Position numbers and translations under genes: made by a program
Part shown: positions 9,934 to 22,835 of the stretch, in pieces
Layout: every line of letters starts with the position of its first letter
How positions within the stretch are numbered: position 1 is the stretch's first letter
The notes under the pieces: generated by a model
What the model was told of the DNA's origin: nothing
The model's database searches: none
The model's input: the letters and a program-made list of their open reading frames with translations, nothing else
Assembly (NCBI GenBank): GCA_963827655.1
Contig: CAWHCF010000049.1
Span: 64,001 to 128,000, forward strand
Source: an uncultured Acidobacteriota bacterium
GTDB lineage: Bacteria > Acidobacteriota > UBA6911
DNA length: 64,000 nucleotides
Direction: 5' to 3'

Positions 9934-10773
9934 ATGGTCAAGTCTATCCTGCTTCCATTGCTCGAAGGATCAACCAGTGAGAGTGCGCGTGAGTACGCTT
10001 TCTGGCTGGCCCAAAAACAGGCGGGTCAAATACACGGCCTCGGCCTGATCGACGTCAAGTCGTTTGAAATCCCCGTCATGGGCACGCCCGATGGATTCAT
10101 GCCTGCCGTGGTAACCCCTCCCCTCCAGGAAAGCCAGAAACTTTTGAACGAGATGAGCGCTCAGGCCCGGGAACGCCTGGAGCAACTGGGCAAAGAGTGC
10201 GGGACCAAAGGAATTCCTTGCAGTACCGACCTCAGGATAGGCATTCCCGGTGAAATCGTCACGCGCGAGGCGGTGGCGCACGACATTGTAGTTCTGGCTC
10301 GCGCAACCTACGGCGGCCCTGAAAGGCGGCTGGATGCCCTGGTTCCAGGCGTGATTCGGGGCTCGATTCGGCCGGTCCTGGTAGCCGGCGGCTCGTTTCG
10401 AAACATTCGTCATATTCTGATTGCTTACGATGGCAGCGTCCATGCCGCGCGCGCTCTTTTGATTGCGGCGGAGCTTGGCGCGCTGGCTGAAATCCGAAGC
10501 ACGCTGGTAAACATTGCCGGTTCTGAAGAGGCCGGGCAGGAGACGCTGGCTCCGGCCGAGGCATACTTATCGCATCATGGGGTGAGCCCCCGGAAGAAAG
10601 TGCTCGCCGGCACGCGGCCGTCCGATCTCATCTGTGAAATTGTGACCAGTTCGGAAGCAGATCTCCTGGTCATGGGAGCCTACGGTCATAGCCCCATTCG
10701 AGAAATGCTATTCGGCAGTACCACTGAGAGGGTTTTGTCGCACTGCGGCTCCTCGGTGGTGCTTCAGTCCTGA
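9934..10773 (+). CDS. Universal stress protein (tandem USP)
   Basis: AYDGS and LLVMGAYGHS...FGSTTERVL motifs. Confidence 0.9.
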   Translation: MVKSILLPLLEGSTSESAREYAFWLAQKQAGQIHGLGLIDVKSFEIPVMGTPDGFMPAVVTPPLQESQKLLNEMSAQARERLEQLGKECGTKGIPCSTDLRIGIPGEIVTREAVAHDIVVLARATYGGPERRLDALVPGVIRGSIRPVLVAGGSFRNIRHILIAYDGSVHAARALLIAAELGALAEIRSTLVNIAGSEEAGQETLAPAEAYLSHHGVSPRKKVLAGTRPSDLICEIVTSSEADLLVMGAYGHSPIREMLFGSTTERVLSHCGSSVVLQS

Positions 10774-10776
10774 TTG

Positions 10777-10875
10777 CTTCGCGGTTGTCTAACAAATACC
10801 ACCAAGACTCAATGACACGAAGAAACACCAAGAATCTTGCCAAACCTAGTAATACGAAGACTCGAAGTGACACAA
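10777..10875. repeat. Nonamer-array repeat
   Basis: AACAAATACCACCAAGACTCAATGACACGAAGAAACACCAAG. Confidence 0.75.
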
Positions 10876-10936
10876 CGCGGTCTGTGGCCGCAGCCAGAGT
10901 TGGTGTTTAGAATTTGGTTGTGGTAAAAGAGAAGCG

Positions 10937-11635
10937 ATGAATCTGCCCAATGCAATAACCCTAGCCCGCATCTTTCTGGCGCCCCTCGTCGTGGCGGTTT
11001 TGCTCACGACTCGGATCAAGAATTGGGAATTCTGGGGTGTGGGCTTGTTCCTTGCCGCTGCCCTCACCGATATTCTTGACGGCTACCTGGCCAGGCGGCG
11101 CGGGCAGGTTACTACACTCGGGCGACTACTGGACCCCATTGCCGACAAGCTGCTGATCTCATCGGCTTTAATTGCGCTCGTACAGCTAGGCCTGGCGCCG
11201 GCGTGGATGGTCGTAATTATTGTAGGCCGGGAGTTCGCTGTGAGCGGGTTACGCAGCATTGCGGCGTCGGAGGGCTTTACCATTCATGCTTCGCCGCTGG
11301 GAAAAGGGAAAATGGCGGTGCAGGTTGCGGCTGTCGTTGGCCTGATTCTGGCCCGCGGCCGCGGAGGATGGATTCTAGAAACGGCAAACGCGCTTCTCTG
11401 GGTGGTGGTTTTTTTCGCCCTCCTTTCCATGACCCAGTATTTTCGAGAATTCTGGTCCAAGATCGATAGCAGCATTAAGTATCGCGAACGTCGTCGCATT
11501 CGCATTCTGGAGCGACGGCGCTTGATTATGGCCGAGCTGCGCGAGCTCCGGCGATTGCACAAGCTTCAAAGCCCCCGTCGTTCAAGACGGGGCTCGACTG
11601 CCCCTCCCGTAGGCTCCGTGCAGGATTCCGGCTAG
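10937..11635 (+). CDS. pgsA: CDP-diacylglycerol--glycerol-3-phosphate 3-phosphatidyltransferase
   Basis: MNLPNAITLAR and DILDGYLARR..GRLLDPIADK motifs. Confidence 0.92.
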   Translation: MNLPNAITLARIFLAPLVVAVLLTTRIKNWEFWGVGLFLAAALTDILDGYLARRRGQVTTLGRLLDPIADKLLISSALIALVQLGLAPAWMVVIIVGREFAVSGLRSIAASEGFTIHASPLGKGKMAVQVAAVVGLILARGRGGWILETANALLWVVVFFALLSMTQYFREFWSKIDSSIKYRERRRIRILERRRLIMAELRELRRLHKLQSPRRSRRGSTAPPVGSVQDSG

Positions 11636-11682
11636 CTTCCTCGGGCTTGCTTCCGCGTTTGCCTCACCAGCGTCGCACGCCT

Positions 11683-12240
11683 ATGAATTTGCCCCCTCCG
11701 GTCCTGGATGATTCTGCAAAGAATGAGCTCCTGGCGCTGGCGCGCCGTACGCTCGAGAGCTATCTGGCATGCGGTGAAATTCCCGGGTATTTTACCAGTC
11801 GTCTGGAACTGTGCGCGCGTTGCGGCGCGTTCGTTTCTCTTCACCGGGGAAAGGACTTGCGTGGGTGCATCGGCCTCCTGACACCGGACGAGGAGCTCTA
11901 TCGAACTGTTCAGCGCTGCGCTATTTCCTCGGCGGTCGAGGATTCGCGATTTCCGCCGGTCACCTACGAAGAGCTGCCGGAACTCACGATAGAGCTATCG
12001 GTGCTGGCGCCCCTCCAGACTATCAGGGATCCCGTGGAAGTCGAAGTCGGCAGGCACGGTCTCCTGATCTCGCGCGAGGGCCGGCGCGGTTTGTTGCTCC
12101 CGCAGGTCGCGACCGAGAATCGATGGGACCGGGAAACCTTCCTCAGTCAGACCTGTCGCAAAGCAGGCCTTCCTCTCGACGCCTGGCGCGATCCGGATAC
12201 GTCGATCGAGAGTTTCACCGCTCAAGTCTTCTCCGAATGA
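11683..12240 (+). CDS. AMMECR1-domain (AmmeMemoRadiSam system A) protein
   Basis: GAFVSL, LRGCIG, DSRF, GLLLPQVA and CRKAG motifs. Confidence 0.92.
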   Translation: MNLPPPVLDDSAKNELLALARRTLESYLACGEIPGYFTSRLELCARCGAFVSLHRGKDLRGCIGLLTPDEELYRTVQRCAISSAVEDSRFPPVTYEELPELTIELSVLAPLQTIRDPVEVEVGRHGLLISREGRRGLLLPQVATENRWDRETFLSQTCRKAGLPLDAWRDPDTSIESFTAQVFSE

Positions 12241-12267
12241 TCTGAACGTTCCTGGAGTGCGGTCCAA

Positions 12268-12343
12268 GATTCTTGATGTTTCTTCGCGTCTTCGCGGTTA
12301 GCTGCGGAACAAATACCGCCAAGACACGAAGAGACACCAGGAA
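12268..12343. repeat. Palindromic nonamer-array element with core GGTTAGCTGCGGAACAAATACC
   Basis: The two arms are reverse complements; the core is shared with 20377-20400. Confidence 0.8.
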
Positions 12344-12458
12344 CTGGCAGCGCACGGTCGCGCTTGTGCCGGCTCCGGCGATGATTTACATTGTCCGGGC
12401 CGGCATCCAGGTGGATGCGTCTTGCGCCGGCCGCGTTCAATCCAACGAGGAGTCGCAC

Positions 12459-13376
12459 GTGATCATTCCGATTGCTGTAGTCCCCGTCGCAGGGCTGGGA
12501 ACCAGGCTTCTTCCAGCCACCAAATCACAGCCCAAAGAAATGCTTCCGGTGGCTAAAAAGCCGGTGGTCCAGTACGTGGTCGAAGAACTGGAAGCCAATG
12601 ACATAAGGCAGATCCTTTTCATCACAGGCAAAAGCAAGACCTCGATTGAGAACCATTTCGACTTTGATCACGAACTGATGAGAAACCTTCGTGAAGGGGG
12701 AAAGGAAGAACTGCTGGCCGAGCTCGAATACGAAAGGATGCCGATCCAGTTCTTCTTTACACGCCAGCGCCGGCAAAAAGGCCTGGGCGATGCCGTTCTG
12801 TGCGGCCGCCCGTATACGCAGGATTCTCCGTTCGTCGTTGCGCTAGGCGACAGCATCATCGGCCTCAACGGCAGCTCGCAGATTTTAAGCCGAATGGCGC
12901 GGACATTCGAATCCACGGGAGCGGCATGCGTCATTGCGGTCGAATCAGTTCCGCTCGACAGCGTCTCCTCATACGGAATCGTCAAGCCCGGAGATTCGTT
13001 GAGTGAGTTGATAAGAGACTCCCGCGGCGCGAACGGCGACGTGTTTGTCATCGAGGATGTTACGGAAAAACCGTCACCCGAGTCTGCACCCAGCAACCTG
13101 GCCATCGCGGCGCGTTACATCTTTTCTCCTGAGATCTATCCCGCGCTCGAGAAAACTCCGCCGGGTAAAAACGGGGAGATTCAACTCACCGACGCGATTC
13201 AGATTCTTTTGCAGGCGGGAAGGAGAATTGTCGGCGTTCGATTGGCGCCGGAAGAACGGCGCTACGATATCGGCAATTTTGAAAGCTACTTCGAAGCATT
13301 CATCGAGTTCGCCATTGCCGACCCGCAGCTTGGGCCGACGCTTCGTAAGAACTTGCCCCGATTGCTGGCAAGGTGA
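12459..13376 (+). CDS. GalU-family UTP--sugar-1-phosphate uridylyltransferase
   Basis: VAGLGTRLLPATK.QPKEMLP, GLGDAV, EKP and GEIQLTDAI motifs; GTG start after GAGGAG. Confidence 0.9.
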   Translation: MIIPIAVVPVAGLGTRLLPATKSQPKEMLPVAKKPVVQYVVEELEANDIRQILFITGKSKTSIENHFDFDHELMRNLREGGKEELLAELEYERMPIQFFFTRQRRQKGLGDAVLCGRPYTQDSPFVVALGDSIIGLNGSSQILSRMARTFESTGAACVIAVESVPLDSVSSYGIVKPGDSLSELIRDSRGANGDVFVIEDVTEKPSPESAPSNLAIAARYIFSPEIYPALEKTPPGKNGEIQLTDAIQILLQAGRRIVGVRLAPEERRYDIGNFESYFEAFIEFAIADPQLGPTLRKNLPRLLAR

Positions 13377-13464
13377 TTCTCCCGATTAGGTGCCCCTATC
13401 ACGCGATGTCTGGTCCGGCGGTTAGTGCCTCAAAGCAAAACCAGCGTCAGGATGGAAGAATCGA

Positions 13465-14460
13465 ATGAAAATAATCAAGGCGGTCGCACACGCTCGAGCG
13501 GCTCTGATCGGGAATCCCTCGGACGGTTACTTTGGCCGGACCATCTCGCTCATCGCCCGAAACTTCGGCGCTCGGGTCGTGGTCTATGAATGGCCTGAAC
13601 TGGAGATCATCCTTAGCCGCCAGGACCGCTGCTGTTTTGACCGGCTGGGCGATCTGGTCCAGGATGTGAAACTGAATGGATACTATGGCGGCCTGCGCCT
13701 CATCAAGGCAGCCATCAAGAGTTTCGCAGAGTATTGCGAGAAAAAGGGAATCACGCTCCCGGCTCGAAATTTTGCGCTCCGCTACGAAACCGATATCCCG
13801 CGGCAGGTCGGCCTGGCGGGCTCGAGTGCGATCGTCACCTCGGTGTTCCGGGCGCTCATGGATTTCTATCAGGTTTCGATACCGAGGGAGGTCTTGCCCA
13901 ACTTGACTCTGGCGGTTGAAACCGGGGAGCTGAGTATCTCGGCAGGTCTGCAAGATCGCGTGACCCAGGTTTATGAAGGTCTCGTGTACATGGATTTTGA
14001 CCGCCGGTACATGGAGGAGCGAGGTCACGGCCAGTACGAACCGCTCGACCCGGCGTTGTTGCCCCCGGTATTTGTGGCCTACAGAACCGACTTGAGCGAA
14101 ATATCGGGCGTTTTTCACAACAACATACGCGCGCGCTGGGAAGCCGGAGAGCCTGCGGTTGTCGACGCGATGACCCACGTGGCTGACCTGGCCCTGGAGG
14201 GAAAGAAGTGCCTGCTTCAGAAAAACCATCGAAGACTGGGCGAGCTGATCAATGAAAACTTCGATACTCGGGCGAGCATCTACAAGTTGGATCCGCGCAA
14301 TGTCGAAATGGTGATGCAGGCGCGTCGTTTAGGTGCCCCGGCGCACTATGCCGGCTCGGGAGGATCCATCCTTGGTATTTACCAGGACGAAAGCATGCTG
14401 GCCGCGCTCCGCCGCGCTTTTGACTCGCTCGGCTGCCGCCTGTTTATTCCCAGCGTCTAG
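13465..14460 (+). CDS. GHMP kinase, plant glucuronokinase-like
   Basis: [50 protein letters not shown] and GSGG match plant glucuronokinase motifs as recalled. Confidence 0.85.
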
Positions 14461-14468
14461 TTTAAGCA

Positions 14469-14578
14469 GAAAGTAAAAAGTGCTGAGTGGAAAGCATTTA
14501 AAGTGTATACTCGGCACTGTTACCGGAATTGGTTGGACTGCTTCCGTTGTTGACTCAGCACTATTTTTACTCAGCACT
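14469..14578. repeat. Inverted AGTGCTGAGT / ACTCAGCACT arrays
   Basis: Same unit as at 39999-40055. Confidence 0.7.
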
Positions 14579-14597
14579 AGTTTACTGGAGTAGGTAG

Positions 14598-15626
14598 ATG
14601 AAGTACCTGGTTACGGGTGGAGCAGGCTTCATCGGGTCGCACTTGACCGAGAAGCTCTTGAGCCGGGGCGATGAGGTCTGCGTCATAGATGATCTTTCGA
14701 CGGGCAGCATGAGTAACGTTAAACACCTCGAAGCGCAGCCGGCCTTCAGGCACGTGCTGGATACCGTGTTGAACTGGCGCTTGATGGCGGAACTTGTCGA
14801 CGGGGCAGACGTCGTCTTCCATCTGGCCGCAGCGGTGGGGGTACGGCTGATCGTGGAAAGCCCGGTGAGGACTATCGAAACCAATATAAGGGGAACCGAG
14901 ATTGTCCTTTCGCTTGCGGCCAGGAAGAGAAAACCTGTGGTTATCTTTTCAACCTCGGAGGTTTATGGCAAATCCAGCCGGGCGAGTTTCTGTGAAACGG
15001 ATGATTTGATCCTTGGACCGACCTTGAAAGGAAGATGGAGTTATGCCGCTTCCAAGATCATCGACGAGTTTCTGGCGCTCGCGTATTTCAAGGAAAAGAA
15101 GCTGCCGGTAGTCATAATTCGCCTGTTCAATACGGTGGGGCCGCGCCAGACGGGGCGGTACGGGATGGTTGTTCCCAGCTTTGTGAGCCAGGCTTTAAAT
15201 GGCGAGCCTATTACGGTTTATGGCGATGGAAAGCAGACCCGTAGCTTCACCCACGTCAAAGATGCCGTCGGGGCGATTTTGAAACTGGTGGAGCATCCGG
15301 AGGCTGTCGGAGAGATTTTCAACATCGGTGGAGTTGATGAAATCACCATTGAGGGTCTGGCTCATACGGTCAAAGACCTCCTTCAAAGCCCCTCAACGAT
15401 CACATACATTCCTTACGATAAAGCCTACGAACAAGGATTCGAGGACATGAGAAAGCGCGCTCCGGACATCAGCAAGATCGAACGAATAATCGGGTATAAA
15501 CCCCGTTACGGTCTCGGCGACATCATCGCCGATGTGGCGGAATATCAGAAACTCCAGCGCGCGTCCGTAGCGCCGTTGACGCCTTCCCAAATACCATTAA
15601 GACGCGAAGACACGAAGAAACACTAA
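14598..15626 (+). CDS. Extended SDR NDP-sugar decarboxylase/epimerase (ArnA/UXS/UAXS-like)
   Basis: GGAGFIG, FSTSEVYG, RWSYAASK and RLFNTVGPRQ motifs. Confidence 0.85.
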   Translation: MKYLVTGGAGFIGSHLTEKLLSRGDEVCVIDDLSTGSMSNVKHLEAQPAFRHVLDTVLNWRLMAELVDGADVVFHLAAAVGVRLIVESPVRTIETNIRGTEIVLSLAARKRKPVVIFSTSEVYGKSSRASFCETDDLILGPTLKGRWSYAASKIIDEFLALAYFKEKKLPVVIIRLFNTVGPRQTGRYGMVVPSFVSQALNGEPITVYGDGKQTRSFTHVKDAVGAILKLVEHPEAVGEIFNIGGVDEITIEGLAHTVKDLLQSPSTITYIPYDKAYEQGFEDMRKRAPDISKIERIIGYKPRYGLGDIIADVAEYQKLQRASVAPLTPSQIPLRREDTKKH

Positions 15627-15627
15627 G
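15588..15627. repeat. Nonamer-array repeat encoding the SDR C-terminus and stop
   Basis: CAAATACCATTAAGACGCGAAGACACGAAGAAACACTAAG. Confidence 0.75.
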
Positions 15628-15629
15628 GA

Positions 15630-15718
15630 CTAAGGTTCGTTCGGGGACTTCGCCCCGAACGAAAGCCCCTTTTGAACGACAACATGTTTGGTTTGAACGT
15701 TTCACCAAGCGCCTAAGA
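15630..15718. repeat. Dispersed element of about 88 bp with a TTCG-loop hairpin (copy 1)
   Basis: Near-identical to 53250-53336; bounded by CTAAG. Confidence 0.85.
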
Positions 15719-15771
15719 CTGGCGGTCGAAGTCTTGATGTTCGAACGGGGGACCGATAATATCAAGGGACC

Positions 15772-17142
15772 ATGGATGATAAGTTAACTCAGGACTTGAA
15801 GTCGCTCAAGATCGATCGCGGTCAGAAGGCGAGCGGAGGCGGCAGTCGGAAAAAGCTGCTCGTCGTGGGCGGGCTTTTGTCGGTGGCCGTGCTCGTGGCG
15901 GCGGTTCTAAGTTTCGTGCCCGAAAAAGCCGGCTTGACGAGTCTTGGAGCCAAGCCTCGCGAAGTGCAGACAGTCATGGTTGTCCGGCAGTCGCCCTCGG
16001 CCGACACCGTGGTGCTCACAGCGGGAGGATACATTATTCCGCGCCACCGGATCGATATCGCATCAAAGCTGAGCGGGCAAGTCGAGGAAGTTCTCTTCGA
16101 GAAGGGCGACGTGGTGAAGGCAGGGCAGGTTCTGGCGCGGCTCGACGATCGTGAGATTCGCGCGCAGCTGGCACAGGCCCGGGCCAATCGCCAGGCGACC
16201 CAGGCGCGTCTGGACGAGGCTGTAACGGGCTCGCGGCCGCAGGAACTGCAACGCGCGCAGGCCACGCTGGAGCAGGCGGAAGCCAATCTTCGAACCAGCA
16301 AGCTGAACCTTGATCGCGCCCGGCAGCTCAACCAGACCGGCGTCTGGGCCAAGCAAGCGCTTGACGATGCCCAGAACAATTATGATGTCGCAGCCGCTCA
16401 AGCCAAGGTCGCCCGCGAGAACTACGAACTCACGCGCATCGGCCCGCGCAAGGAGCAAATCGAGCTGTCCCGGGCTCAAGTCGCTGAAGCGGATGCCACG
16501 ATTCGCTGGTGGGAAACGCAGCTCGAGAACGCCGTGATTCGGGCACCGGTCGACGGCACGATATCTGGACCGGGGAGTCGAGAAGGGTGAAATGCTGACT
16601 ACCGGGATTCTACGGCGGCGGACGGGGTCCCAAAGCCAGGCCTCGGGAGCCTGGCAGACCTGAAGGAACTCGAGGTCGAGCTCGACATCAACGAGGCTGA
16701 TATTTCTCGCGTCCATTCTGGCCAGGAATGCACGGTGTCACCGGACTCCTATCCGGATCGGAAATACAAGGCTCGAGTCCGCGAAATCGCGCCCGAGGCA
16801 AACCGCCAGAAGGCGACTATCCAGGTAAAAGTAGCCATCGAGTCGCCCGACAAATACCTCCGGCCGGAGACCAACGCGAAAGTGAATTTCCTGGAAGAGT
16901 CCAAGCCATCGGCCGGCGAAGATCGGATTCTGATTCCCAAATCGGCCGTCGCCGACTCTCAAGGCGCCTCGTCTGTCTACCTGATCAAAGATGGACGGGC
17001 CGCGCGCCAGAGTATCAAGACCAGCAAGGAACTCGGGGGACAGATCGAGGTAGTTTCCGGACTGGTCGGTGGAGAGCAGCTGATTGTGCGCGGCCTCGAG
17101 GGGATTACGGATGGAGAGAGGGTGACGGTGAAGCACAACTGA
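15772..17142 (+). CDS. MacA/HlyD-type periplasmic adaptor; frameshifted at about 16560-16650
   Basis: N-terminal [29 protein letters not shown]; C-terminal beta barrel in ORF 16735-17142. Confidence 0.85.
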
Positions 17143-17188
17143 CAAACGATTGAATGACGATGTGACCAAGGGCGCACATGGAGTATTC

Positions 17189-17887
17189 ATGCCTGATGCA
17201 CTGGTGAGAATCTCGAACCTGAGCAAAGTGTTCAAACGCGACAACGAAAAAGTGGTGGCGCTGGAGGAATGCTCGCTCGACATTTCGAAAGGCGAATTTC
17301 TGGCCCTGATGGGACCCTCGGGGTCCGGCAAGACTACGCTCCTGAACATCATCGCCGGTATCGATCGGCCGACCACCGGGGAAGTCGAGGTGGATGGTAT
17401 CAGGATCGCATCGATGTCCGATCGCGAGCTGGCCCACTGGCGCAACACCCACATCGGATTCGTTTTTCAATCCTTCAACCTGATTCCCGTGCTCACGGCT
17501 TTCGAAAACGTGGAGCTGCCGCTCCTGCTCACCCGGCTGAGCAAGCCGGAGAGGCACGATCACGTCAAGACGGCTTTGCGTCTGGTCGGCCTGGAGGACC
17601 GGATGAAGCATTATCCCCGCCAGCTCTCCGGAGGTCAGGAGCAGCGGGTTGCCATTGCGAGAGCCATTGTCACCGATCCGACACTCCTCCTCGCCGACGA
17701 GCCCACGGGAGACCTGGACGCTCACGCGGCTCAGGAGATCATGAATCTCCTCGAGCGGTTGAATAAGGAATTCGGAAAATCGGTCGTCATGGTTACCCAT
17801 GATGCCAGGGCGGCGCATCATGCGACGAGCAGACGATACCTGGATAAGGGAGTGTTGTTGAAAGACGGGCAGCTCCCGGGGGCTTGA
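17189..17887 (+). CDS. LolD/MacB-type ABC ATPase
   Basis: [23 protein letters not shown] and VTHD motifs. Confidence 0.93.
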
Positions 17888-21455: not shown

Positions 21456-22835
21456 ATGAACATCTCAGTGATTGGTACAGGGTACGCCGGTCTCGTCACA
21501 GGAGCCTGCTTTGCCGAGTTTGGTCTGAAGGTCACCGGGGTCGATAAGGACAGAAAGAAGATTGAAGATCTTGCCAAGGGAAAGATGCCTATCTTCGAGC
21601 CTGGTCTGGAAGAGATCGTACGTCGCAACATGGGCACCGGATTCCTGCGCTTCACGACCGAGGTTGATGAAGCGATCCAGAATTCTCTGGTTATCTTCAT
21701 TGCGGTCGGCACGCCGGCGCTGCCGACGGGTGGAGCGGACCTCTCGTACGTAGACGATGTGTCGCGAGCGATTGCGCGCAATCTAAACGGCTACAAGGTC
21801 ATCGTCACCAAGAGCACCGTACCGGTCGGAACCGGGGATCGGATCCGCGCCACGATGGAGAAGGAACTGCGAAAGCGCAATCAGGCTAAGAAACAGCGTG
21901 GCCGGGTGGTGAACGCCGCCGCCGCGGCCTCAGGCAATCTGCCGCGAAGCGGCACCCCTATGTTCGACATAGCTTCCAATCCGGAGTTTCTGAGAGAGGG
22001 AAGCGCCGTGGATGATTTTCTCCATCCGGACCGGATCGTCATAGGCGCCGACAGCGAGCAAGCGATCGCAATCGTCAGAGATCTGTATAGCCCGCTCTAT
22101 CTCGGCGGCAAGACTCGCTTCGTGATTACCGATGTTCGAACGGCGGAGTTGATCAAATACGCAACCAATGCCTTTCTTGCCACCAAGATCACCTTCATTA
22201 ACGAGATCGCCAATCTCTGTGATCGGGTCGGCTCCAATGTGGCGACCATAGCCACCGCTCTCGGAATGGACGGCCGCATCAGCCCGAAATTCCTCAACCC
22301 GGGGCCGGGATTCGGCGGCTCATGCTTTCCGAAGGACACGCGAGCGCTCTGCCGGATTGCGGACGACGCCGGATATTACTTCGGGGTCCTGGATGCCGTG
22401 GTTAAGATAAACCAGAGACAGCCTCGCTTGATGGTGGATAAGATTCGCAAAGCGGCTGGAGGCCTGCGCGGCAAGACGATCGGCTTGCTGGGCCTTAGCT
22501 TCAAACCGAACACCGACGATATCCGGGAGTCGCCGGCCATCCTGATCGCCCGGGCGCTGAAGCGCGGGGGAGCCCAGGTTCGCGCCTGCGACCCGGTCTC
22601 AGGGCTTGCGGCAAAGAAAGAGCTTCCAGGCATCAGCGTCCTCACTGATGTAGACGCGGTAGCCCGCGGCGCCGACGCGCTGGTGATTGTTACCGAATGG
22701 AACCAGTACCGTAACCTCGACCTGGCCCGGCTCAAGAAGCTGATGAAGCGGCCCCTTCTGATTGATCTGCGCAATGTCTATCTGCCGGAGCGGGTGCGCG
22801 AGGCCGGCGTCGAGTATGTAGGAATCGGCCAGTGA
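21456..22835 (+). CDS. ugd: UDP-glucose 6-dehydrogenase
   Basis: GTGYAG, KSTVPVG, NPEFLREG, GFGGSCFPKD and FKPNTDD.RES motifs. Confidence 0.93.
   Translation: MNISVIGTGYAGLVTGACFAEFGLKVTGVDKDRKKIEDLAKGKMPIFEPGLEEIVRRNMGTGFLRFTTEVDEAIQNSLVIFIAVGTPALPTGGADLSYVDDVSRAIARNLNGYKVIVTKSTVPVGTGDRIRATMEKELRKRNQAKKQRGRVVNAAAAASGNLPRSGTPMFDIASNPEFLREGSAVDDFLHPDRIVIGADSEQAIAIVRDLYSPLYLGGKTRFVITDVRTAELIKYATNAFLATKITFINEIANLCDRVGSNVATIATALGMDGRISPKFLNPGPGFGGSCFPKDTRALCRIADDAGYYFGVLDAVVKINQRQPRLMVDKIRKAAGGLRGKTIGLLGLSFKPNTDDIRESPAILIARALKRGGAQVRACDPVSGLAAKKELPGISVLTDVDAVARGADALVIVTEWNQYRNLDLARLKKLMKRPLLIDLRNVYLPERVREAGVEYVGIGQ

Follow-up and report, generated by a model that had tools for sequence, protein, structure and literature searches.

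A conserved glucuronokinase-family/GalU-type gene pair as a candidate route from free glucuronate to UDP-glucuronate in Acidobacteriota and other bacteria

Known systems for glucuronate activation

In the textbook account, bacteria synthesize UDP-glucuronic acid (UDP-GlcA) via UDP-glucose and UDP-glucose 6-dehydrogenase (Ugd), and free glucuronate is a carbon source. In plants, a glucuronokinase acts together with a UDP-sugar pyrophosphorylase (USP), and the latter belongs to the eukaryote-type UDPGP family. This report concerns a 64,000-nucleotide stretch of DNA from an uncultured Acidobacteriota bacterium, hereafter the window, which is positions 64001-128000 of contig C49 in a genome of 8.18 Mb (53 contigs, about 90% complete). 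Matches in the window to family models of acidobacteria (TIGR03436 and ADOP) agree with this origin. We propose that two of its genes, at 12459-13376 and 13465-14460, which encode a GalU-type nucleotidyltransferase and a GHMP kinase, would form a two-gene sugar-activation module. The best-supported function of the pair is the formation of UDP-GlcA from free glucuronate, to which we give a probability of about 0.7. The kinase would phosphorylate free D-glucuronic acid at C1 with ATP as the donor, the adjacent nucleotidyltransferase would convert GlcA-1-phosphate (GlcA-1-P) and UTP to UDP-GlcA, and this product would supply glycosyltransferases and a UDP-xylose synthase (UXS), thus bypassing UDP-glucose and Ugd. 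We infer both substrates and the direction of flux from four kinds of sequence evidence that are described below, namely family membership, gene adjacency, residue substitutions, and the distribution of Ugd and GalU genes.

The plant system is similar in several ways. Arabidopsis glucuronokinase 1 (GlcAK1, At3g01640, EC 2.7.1.43), the kinase that is teamed with the UDP-sugar pyrophosphorylase, belongs to the same family as the window kinase and shares its invariant motifs, and the plant salvage/myo-inositol-oxygenation route follows the same two-step logic of a kinase and then a pyrophosphorylase (PMC2823444; this and the other PMC articles are cited here from excerpts). The Arabidopsis enzyme (PMC2823444) and the zebrafish enzyme (PMC3938481) have been assayed, and both are reported there to be specific for glucuronate. 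However, the plant route differs from the window locus in two respects. The partner of the window kinase is a GalU-type PF00483 enzyme encoded beside it, and myo-inositol oxygenase (MIOX), which provides glucuronate in plants, was not found in the genome that contains the window and was found in only one of 11 kinase-bearing genomes.

In animals, a PF00483 nucleotidyltransferase is fused to the kinase, whereas in the window the two proteins are encoded by adjacent genes. The initial annotation of the window had used the fish fusion as a parallel, and this parallel holds for the kinase half (46% identity) but not for the nucleotidyltransferase half. In BLASTP, the GalU-like protein matched the Danio fusion only over a 61-residue stretch around the G-loop (E 0.07), and tblastn with the fish N-terminal domain against 73 loci that contain relatives of the kinase gave no match of at least 100 aligned residues at E <= 1e-5. 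We have rejected the argument from the fish fusion to the GalU-like protein, since the N-terminal domain of the fusion is not the counterpart of this protein. The animal nucleotidyltransferase domain is itself reported to have only very low pyrophosphorylase activity (PMC3938481).

Among the bacterial enzymes, GalU (TIGR01099) has the same fold family and length as the window protein, in which the catalytic residues are kept. The window protein differs from GalU in that it scores below the family cut-off, falls in a separate kinase-linked clade, has Ser in place of Asp and Asp in place of His, and contains small insertions. A bacterial route of two steps, first an anomeric kinase and then a uridylyltransferase, is likewise described for Solitalea canadensis, where GalK and a uridyltransferase for glucose-1-phosphate salvage xylose to UDP-xylose and bypass both Ugd and UXS (excerpt of PMC11267548, citing Green Chem 2022). 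The Solitalea route relies on a promiscuous galactokinase and an ordinary uridyltransferase, whereas the pair described here consists of a glucuronokinase-family kinase and a dedicated, co-inherited clade of partners.

Bacterial members of the family have been mentioned before. In the excerpted text, Pieslinger et al. (2010) noted glucuronokinase genes in 'a few bacteria' and listed Solibacter usitatus, Dyadobacter and Verrucomicrobium (PMC2823444), and for the fish nucleotidyltransferase domain, Gangl et al. (2014) mentioned bacterial relatives solely in the form of stand-alone pyrophosphorylases (PMC3938481). A full-text literature search, which did not cover subscription journals, found neither an assay of a bacterial member nor a description of the conserved pair. 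New here are the observations that loss of the Ugd family is restricted to pair-bearing genomes (9/41 versus 0/113) and that the kinase-linked gene is often the sole GalU-type gene.

The kinase and its GalU-type partner

The initial annotation had called the kinase a plant-type glucuronokinase, and this assignment holds. The protein has both GHMP domains, PF00288 (E 1.9e-10) and PF08544 (E 5.3e-05), above the Pfam cut-offs, carries the PxxxGLxSSA and GSGG (AGSGGS) motifs of GHMP kinases, and fits no curated NCBIfam equivalog. In a word-indexed search, 7995 of the 8000 candidates scored were relatives of the kinase; the best 120 were 61-98% identical to it, and many of these have the JGI label 'glucuronokinase'. 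Nearly all of the 120 top longer relatives listed were animal PF00483+GHMP fusions named 'glucuronokinase with putative uridyl pyrophosphorylase', with 44-48% identity and a query coverage of 95-100% in most rows and 91-92% in three. An exhaustive profile-free search returned 533 cluster representatives at E <= 1e-30. The pairwise comparison with the Danio fusion gave 151/330 identities (46%) over 98% of the kinase, and a plant protein that NCBI names glucuronokinase 1 was also 46% identical (E 1.8e-71); the Danio and plant proteins used in these comparisons are related to the assayed enzymes but are not the sequences that were assayed. Among GHMP kinases of solved structure, the best match was an HddA-type heptose kinase, at an E value of only 1.7e-07, and no solved structure of a glucuronokinase family member turned up in the search of solved relatives.

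In a phylogenetic tree of 32 rows, the window kinase groups with 21 other bacterial and seven eukaryotic family members, the HddA-like and ThrB kinases of the same genome are on branches of more than five substitutions per site, and there is no clustering with HddA or GalK. The tree comes from a quick search with SH-aLRT support only and is effectively unrooted; read in this way, the eukaryotic glucuronokinases are a single clade within the bacterial diversity. Thirty of the 331 kinase positions, the quoted motifs included, are invariant in the 29 family rows (22 bacterial and seven eukaryotic). We classify the kinase as a member of the glucuronokinase family and predict that it catalyzes the reaction D-glucuronate + ATP -> alpha-D-GlcA-1-phosphate.

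A GHMP domain from a nucleotidyltransferase-fused protein of about 1000 amino acids in the same genome had been included as an outgroup; its branch was saturated and its placement arbitrary, and it was disregarded. The genome has two near-identical open frames of this kind, each of about 970-1010 amino acids (L082, C15:8116-11337, and L083, C11:40115-43211), with an N-terminal GlmU-like nucleotidyltransferase domain and a GHMP kinase domain and with no curated family. They may represent another fused sugar-1-kinase/nucleotidyltransferase.

The genomic neighborhood of the kinase was surveyed in the 73 loci mentioned above, which were fetched from one-genome-per-species contigs. A GalU-type gene is located directly beside the kinase gene and on the same strand in 68 of them, which come from about a dozen phyla. 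The partner is upstream in 54 loci (Acidobacteriota, Planctomycetota, Verrucomicrobiota, Abditibacteriota, Balneolota and Actinomycetota) and downstream in 14 (Bacteroidota, Calditrichota, Spirochaetota, Sumerlaeota and KSB1), with a spacing of -2 to 147 nt between the aligned parts. Five loci have no GalU-type neighbor; a contig end truncates one of them, and in one the kinase begins 408 nt from a contig start. No other neighboring gene family occurs in more than eight of the 73 loci, as judged by crude ORF calling. The linkage proposed in the initial annotation is, in other words, strongly conserved, and the kinase/GalU-type pair is a real and widely shared module.

The Bryobacterales-type kinases (L061, L063; P0124, P0329, P0338; G002, G054, G090) have no adjacent GalU-type gene, and the Bryobacterales-type genomes G002, G054 and G090 gave no GalU-type match at E <= 1e-40. 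Several of these kinases have an N-terminal extension of up to about 250 amino acids; in the two cases P0124 and L061, the extension contains no Pfam domain and has no likeness to the fish domain.

Some of the loci offer a metabolic context. In L049 and L050 the pair is flanked by TRAP transporter genes and uxaC/uxaE, and in L077 it adjoins uxaC, which supports a hexuronate as the substrate of the pair. Six Prolixibacteraceae-type loci have a regulator, an aldose 1-epimerase and an AMP-binding enzyme preceding the pair (L069 is cut and has only the last of these).

The GalU-type protein of the window scores 283.6 bits against TIGR01099, below the curated cut-off of 326.8, and about 200 bits against solved GalU structures (e.g., 5vct and 2e3d). 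A canonical galU that scores 387.2 bits, above the cut-off, is on another contig of the genome (C31:144404-145195), and so the term 'GalU paralog' in the initial annotation is correct for this organism. In a partner tree of 62 rows, the upstream-type partners, 20 in number, all fall together in a single clade (SH-aLRT 99), and 25 unlinked acidobacterial GalUs, including the canonical copy from the same genome, form a separate clade (SH-aLRT 95). The sister pairs L053+L059 and L021+L043 recur in both the kinase and the partner trees, as would be expected if the kinase and its partner move together.

Two positions on the sugar side separate the linked from the unlinked proteins in a comparison of 55 upstream-type, 13 downstream-type and 42 unlinked sequences. 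Position 132 (window numbering) is Ser in 53 of the 55 upstream-type partners, Thr in all 13 downstream-type partners and Asp in all 42 unlinked proteins; position 111 is Asp in 51/55 and 13/13 of the linked types and His in 42/42 of the unlinked ones. The window protein itself has S132 and D111, not the Asp and the His of GLGHA that are found in unlinked proteins. Position 132 comes after the Mg-binding Asp and is equivalent to V138 of KpUGP and D131 of PaUGP, a position said in an excerpt of PMC11796359 to help coordinate the glucose moiety. The replacement of Asp by Ser or Thr at this site would remove a negative charge beside the sugar and fits a substrate that carries a carboxylate.

The catalytic and nucleotide-binding residues are kept in the window protein (G12, R16, K26, E27, Q103, G108, D131, E203 and K204, matching KpUGP G17, R21, K31, E32, Q109, G114, D137, E201 and K202), as is the equivalent of KpUGP T20; the residue list is from the PMC11796359 excerpt, and the window residues were read off alignments to solved GalUs. 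Since all of the catalytic residues in that list are present, a dead GalF-like copy was ruled out. We predict that the linked GalU-type enzyme makes UDP-GlcA from GlcA-1-P and UTP and that it possibly makes UDP-glucose as well.

These canonical catalytic residues, and the several genomes that have no GalU-type gene besides the linked one, would also fit an ordinary housekeeping UDP-glucose pyrophosphorylase that sits next to the kinase through shared regulation or hitch-hiking, with GlcA-1-P used elsewhere or not at all. We consider this improbable. About a dozen phyla and two different gene orders preserve the adjacency, the partner clade is restricted to kinase loci in the sampled rows, the Bacteroidota sample has hardly any other GalU-type gene, and another use of GlcA-1-P is not known according to the excerpted text of PMC3938481.

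Distribution of the pair in relation to GalU, Ugd and UXS

The distribution of the genes was examined in 121 acidobacterial genomes, plus the genomes reached through the fetched loci. Two of the 121 genomes (G048 and G023) are unpublished; they account for two of the 42 unlinked rows and one of the 13 SDR loci described below, and the conclusions do not depend on them. The kinase is present in eight of the 121 genomes and a GalU-type gene in 100, of which 72 are above the cut-off. Besides the genome that contains the window, which has both a canonical and a linked copy, four sample genomes carry the adjacent pair; these four have no GalU above the cut-off, and three of them have the linked gene only. 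Two further complete acidobacterial chromosomes and an Abditibacterium genome likewise have no GalU-type gene besides the linked one. Therefore, the linked enzyme probably still makes UDP-glucose in these organisms and is not simply a 're-specialised' paralog, as the initial annotation had it; the clade-specific substitutions agree with that wording, and the many pair-bearing genomes in which the gene has no GalU-type companion do not. Among 151 Bacteroidota genomes, the kinase is present in one and a GalU-type gene in two, and the stronger of these two genes, that of Maribellus (369 bits, above the cut-off), adjoins the kinase. The partner thus comes with the kinase and is more than a spare paralog, and in many genomes it must also cover any UDP-glucose synthesis that is needed.

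TIGR03026, the nucleotide-sugar dehydrogenase family that contains Ugd and that was used as the test for it, has a member in 120 of the 121 genomes of the acidobacterial sample, and the lone exception, which is a single contig and 99% complete, carries the pair. Two further complete pair-bearing chromosomes also have no TIGR03026 member, and the same is true of six of 34 further pair-bearing genomes. Altogether the Ugd family is absent from nine of 41 pair-bearing genomes, all labelled Acidobacteriota, versus none of the 113 genomes of the sample that have no kinase. By their record titles, six of these nine genomes are complete chromosomes, and there are no completeness figures for the locus-derived genomes. 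The Ugd-less pair-bearing chromosome records are OZ220706.1 (G084), OZ246889.1, CP070717.1, OZ242374.1, OY764083.1, OZ241897.1 and OZ253580.1.

The genome that contains the window has a UXS-like gene of which an orthologue (53-66% identical) is present in all 11 kinase-bearing genomes that were tested, and three of these lack Ugd. This gene, the best UXS orthologue of the genome, is at C49:140133-141029, about 12 kb past the end of the window, and it scores 335 bits against human UXS1. Of the indirect evidence presented here, the retention of UXS in genomes that have the pair and no Ugd speaks most strongly for UDP-GlcA as the product of the pair.

The initial annotation had described the pathway as a second, salvage route. 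This would be apt for the genome at hand, which has both a canonical GalU and Ugd, so that the pair would be a salvage side-route. It does not apply everywhere, as some of the other acidobacteria have no Ugd-family gene and the pair appears to be their only recognizable route to UDP-GlcA. One may go further and suppose that in several acidobacterial lineages without Ugd or another GalU, the pair is the only source of UDP-GlcA and hence of UDP-xylose, that its GalU-type enzyme is a UDP-sugar pyrophosphorylase of dual specificity that has displaced both canonical GalU and the Ugd route, that acidic glycans and glycans with pentoses are built from scavenged glucuronate and that the eukaryotic glucuronokinases possibly descended from this bacterial module. 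We put this forward tentatively, as a scenario with perhaps one chance in three or a little less.

Several observations weigh against a role of the pair in glucuronate activation. First, a source of free glucuronate is not evident, since MIOX, UxaC, GH67 and GH115 were not found in the 90% complete genome (GH2/GH79 and transporters were not searched). The MIOX model had no match in this genome or in the control genomes, yet the same model found one in G016 (G016:C29:43878-44600, 376 bits, 23 kb from the pair), the single positive among the 11 kinase-bearing genomes. Second, 46% identity does not fix the substrate of the kinase, and the uxaC/uxaE context fits galacturonate as much as glucuronate. 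Third, loss of the Asp is not diagnostic by itself, as Val occupies the Ser/Thr position in GalU of the E. coli type, and L143, a divergent protein that is unlinked, shows the same T and D combination. Fourth, all six UDP-glucose pyrophosphorylases, out of eleven in one study, that were tested for substrate preference were specific for glucose-1-phosphate (Glc-1-P), and the cassava and potato enzymes had less than 10% activity on GlcA-1-P, according to the PMC12203929 excerpt. Fifth, at least six genomes (G032, G084, G096, G121, G123 and G124) have no GalU-type gene other than the linked one. Finally, the Ugd-less genomes are related to each other, i.e., four of their kinases share 86-92% identity in a comparison in which another stands apart at 63-64%, so that the nine of 41 are perhaps three lineages and not independent events.

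Some of these points would be accommodated if the pair activated another sugar, such as galacturonate, glucose, galactose or xylose, and the GalU-type enzyme were a general UDP-sugar pyrophosphorylase. As a sole GalU-type enzyme it probably handles Glc-1-P, the linked gene of Maribellus scores as a canonical GalU, UxaE in L049, L050 and L077 belongs to galacturonate breakdown, and the promiscuous Solitalea enzymes are described in the excerpt of PMC11267548 as salvaging xylose in this manner. We nevertheless think this unlikely, although less so than the housekeeping role discussed above. Both assayed family members, plant and zebrafish, are GlcA-specific in the excerpted reports, and the 30 invariant positions extend across the bacterial and eukaryotic members. 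Furthermore, Ugd has been lost only from genomes that bear the pair and that, in the three tested, retain UXS, a pattern that indicates UDP-GlcA as the product, and the change from Asp to Ser or Thr takes a negative charge away from the vicinity of the sugar. Glucuronate activation is for these reasons the reading that we prefer.

The neighboring SDR, the surroundings of the pair and the meaning of the pathway

The initial annotation had also included a third gene, which encodes an extended short-chain dehydrogenase/reductase (SDR), as the step that would decarboxylate the UDP-GlcA from the pair to a UDP-pentose. One can see why. The gene is co-oriented with the kinase gene and begins 137 bp downstream of it, the protein has the TSE and YxxxK motifs, and its best solved relatives include UDP-GlcA decarboxylases: human UXS1 ranks first at 171 bits, followed by 8vr2, an unnamed epimerase/dehydratase, at 163 bits, and ArnA scores about 105-112 bits. 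A literature search on PDB 8VR2 gave nothing relevant to the SDR.

The wider comparison makes this third step quite improbable. The SDR is beside the pair in none of the 73 other loci, and this includes relatives that share the upstream genes and have kinases 71-76% identical to that of the window, in which the downstream genes differ. Orthologues of the SDR (52-65% identical) occur once each in 46 of the 121 acidobacterial genomes, compared to eight for the kinase, and in G016, G032, G084 and G096 they are separated from the pair by 228 kb or lie on different contigs. In five of 13 orthologue loci examined, a PF00953 polyprenyl-phosphate sugar-phosphate transferase gene adjoins the SDR gene, and GT1, GT2, Bac_transf, Wzy or flippase genes are alongside it in others. 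The protein is below every NCBIfam cut-off (e.g., 144 versus 294 bits for PRK11908 and 117 versus 777 for ArnA), and with 171 bits to human UXS1 it is a far weaker UXS candidate than the 335-bit protein noted above. Its relatives are named 'UDP-glucose 4-epimerase' or 'GDP-mannose 4,6-dehydratase' in their sources. We read the SDR as a nucleotide-sugar-modifying enzyme, probably of polysaccharide synthesis, that is here by happenstance, and judge it to be outside the module.

Two dispersed repeat elements are located at the 3' end of the SDR gene and in the spacer that follows (15588-15627 and about 15630-15720), and the second of these contains a hairpin with an 11-bp stem directly after the stop codon. 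BLAST with the 15588-15720 region gives about 200-300 short matches in the genome, and soil metatranscriptome contigs with many different flanks stack there. The repeats fit a local rearrangement.

The three co-oriented ORFs are where the initial annotation had placed them, and all of the motifs quoted there are present in the translations, including HGQY in the kinase and FSTSEVYG and RWSYAASK in the SDR (Table 1). The ugd gene that had been noticed near the pair is intact, with three UDPG_MGDP_dh domains, and represents the de novo route to UDP-GlcA in this genome.

Table 1. Genes of the kinase/GalU-type locus and the nearby ugd gene (window coordinates)
Feature	Position	Strand	Details
GalU-family sugar-1-phosphate uridylyltransferase (predicted), kinase-linked clade	12459..13376	+	305 aa; PF00483, TIGR01099 below cut-off
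GHMP kinase, glucuronokinase family	13465..14460	+	331 aa; GHMP_kinases_N and C domains
Extended SDR, judged outside the module	14598..15626	+	342 aa; no NCBIfam cut-off reached
UDP-glucose 6-dehydrogenase (Ugd), context only	21456..22835	+	TIGR03026 446.9 bits vs cut-off 189.8

The GalU-type gene could also be read as a longer ORF from 12273. The GTG start at 12459 is the better choice because it is preceded by a Shine-Dalgarno-like GAGGAG (12447-12452) and because the longer ORF passes through a dispersed repeat. This repeat, at 12270-12340 upstream of the GalU-type gene, has about 20 copies in the genome. The AT-rich spacer between the kinase and SDR genes (14461-14597) contains GTGCTGAGT, whose reverse complement, ACTCAGCAC, is present there twice, an arrangement that could be an operator or a terminator-like element. 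A scan for promoter and terminator consensus sequences over 10500-17500 gave counts close to the shuffled expectation and nothing usable, and an Rfam scan of 12000-16200 gave no match at E <= 0.1.

Soil metatranscriptome contigs (four runs from three studies) have short, near-identical pieces that cover parts of all three genes. One piece, 13403-13522, begins in the spacer between the GalU-type and kinase genes and extends into the kinase gene. None of the pieces in these runs joins two genes, carry-over of DNA is possible, and they demonstrate neither transcription nor an operon; gaps in the coverage are likewise without significance.

The genes upstream of the pair (an M50 protease, Usp, PgsA and AMMECR1) are also present in close relatives and are uninformative on function. 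Downstream of the SDR, an HlyD-family adaptor gene (15772-17133) can be aligned over its whole length with a homologue of 452 aa in L008, at 62% identity over 458 aa. A stop codon in its frame (16588-16590) may mean that the gene is a pseudogene or that the assembly is in error there.

If the proposed function is correct, the known ways of forming UDP-GlcA would be joined by direct activation through a kinase/uridylyltransferase pair that is widespread and shared horizontally, a route that is compact, consists of two enzymes and does not require NAD. The pair would also provide a set of natural GalU variants for studying how a uridylyltransferase accommodates a sugar carboxylate. Finally, it would explain why some soil acidobacteria retain a UDP-xylose synthase without having any Ugd-family gene.

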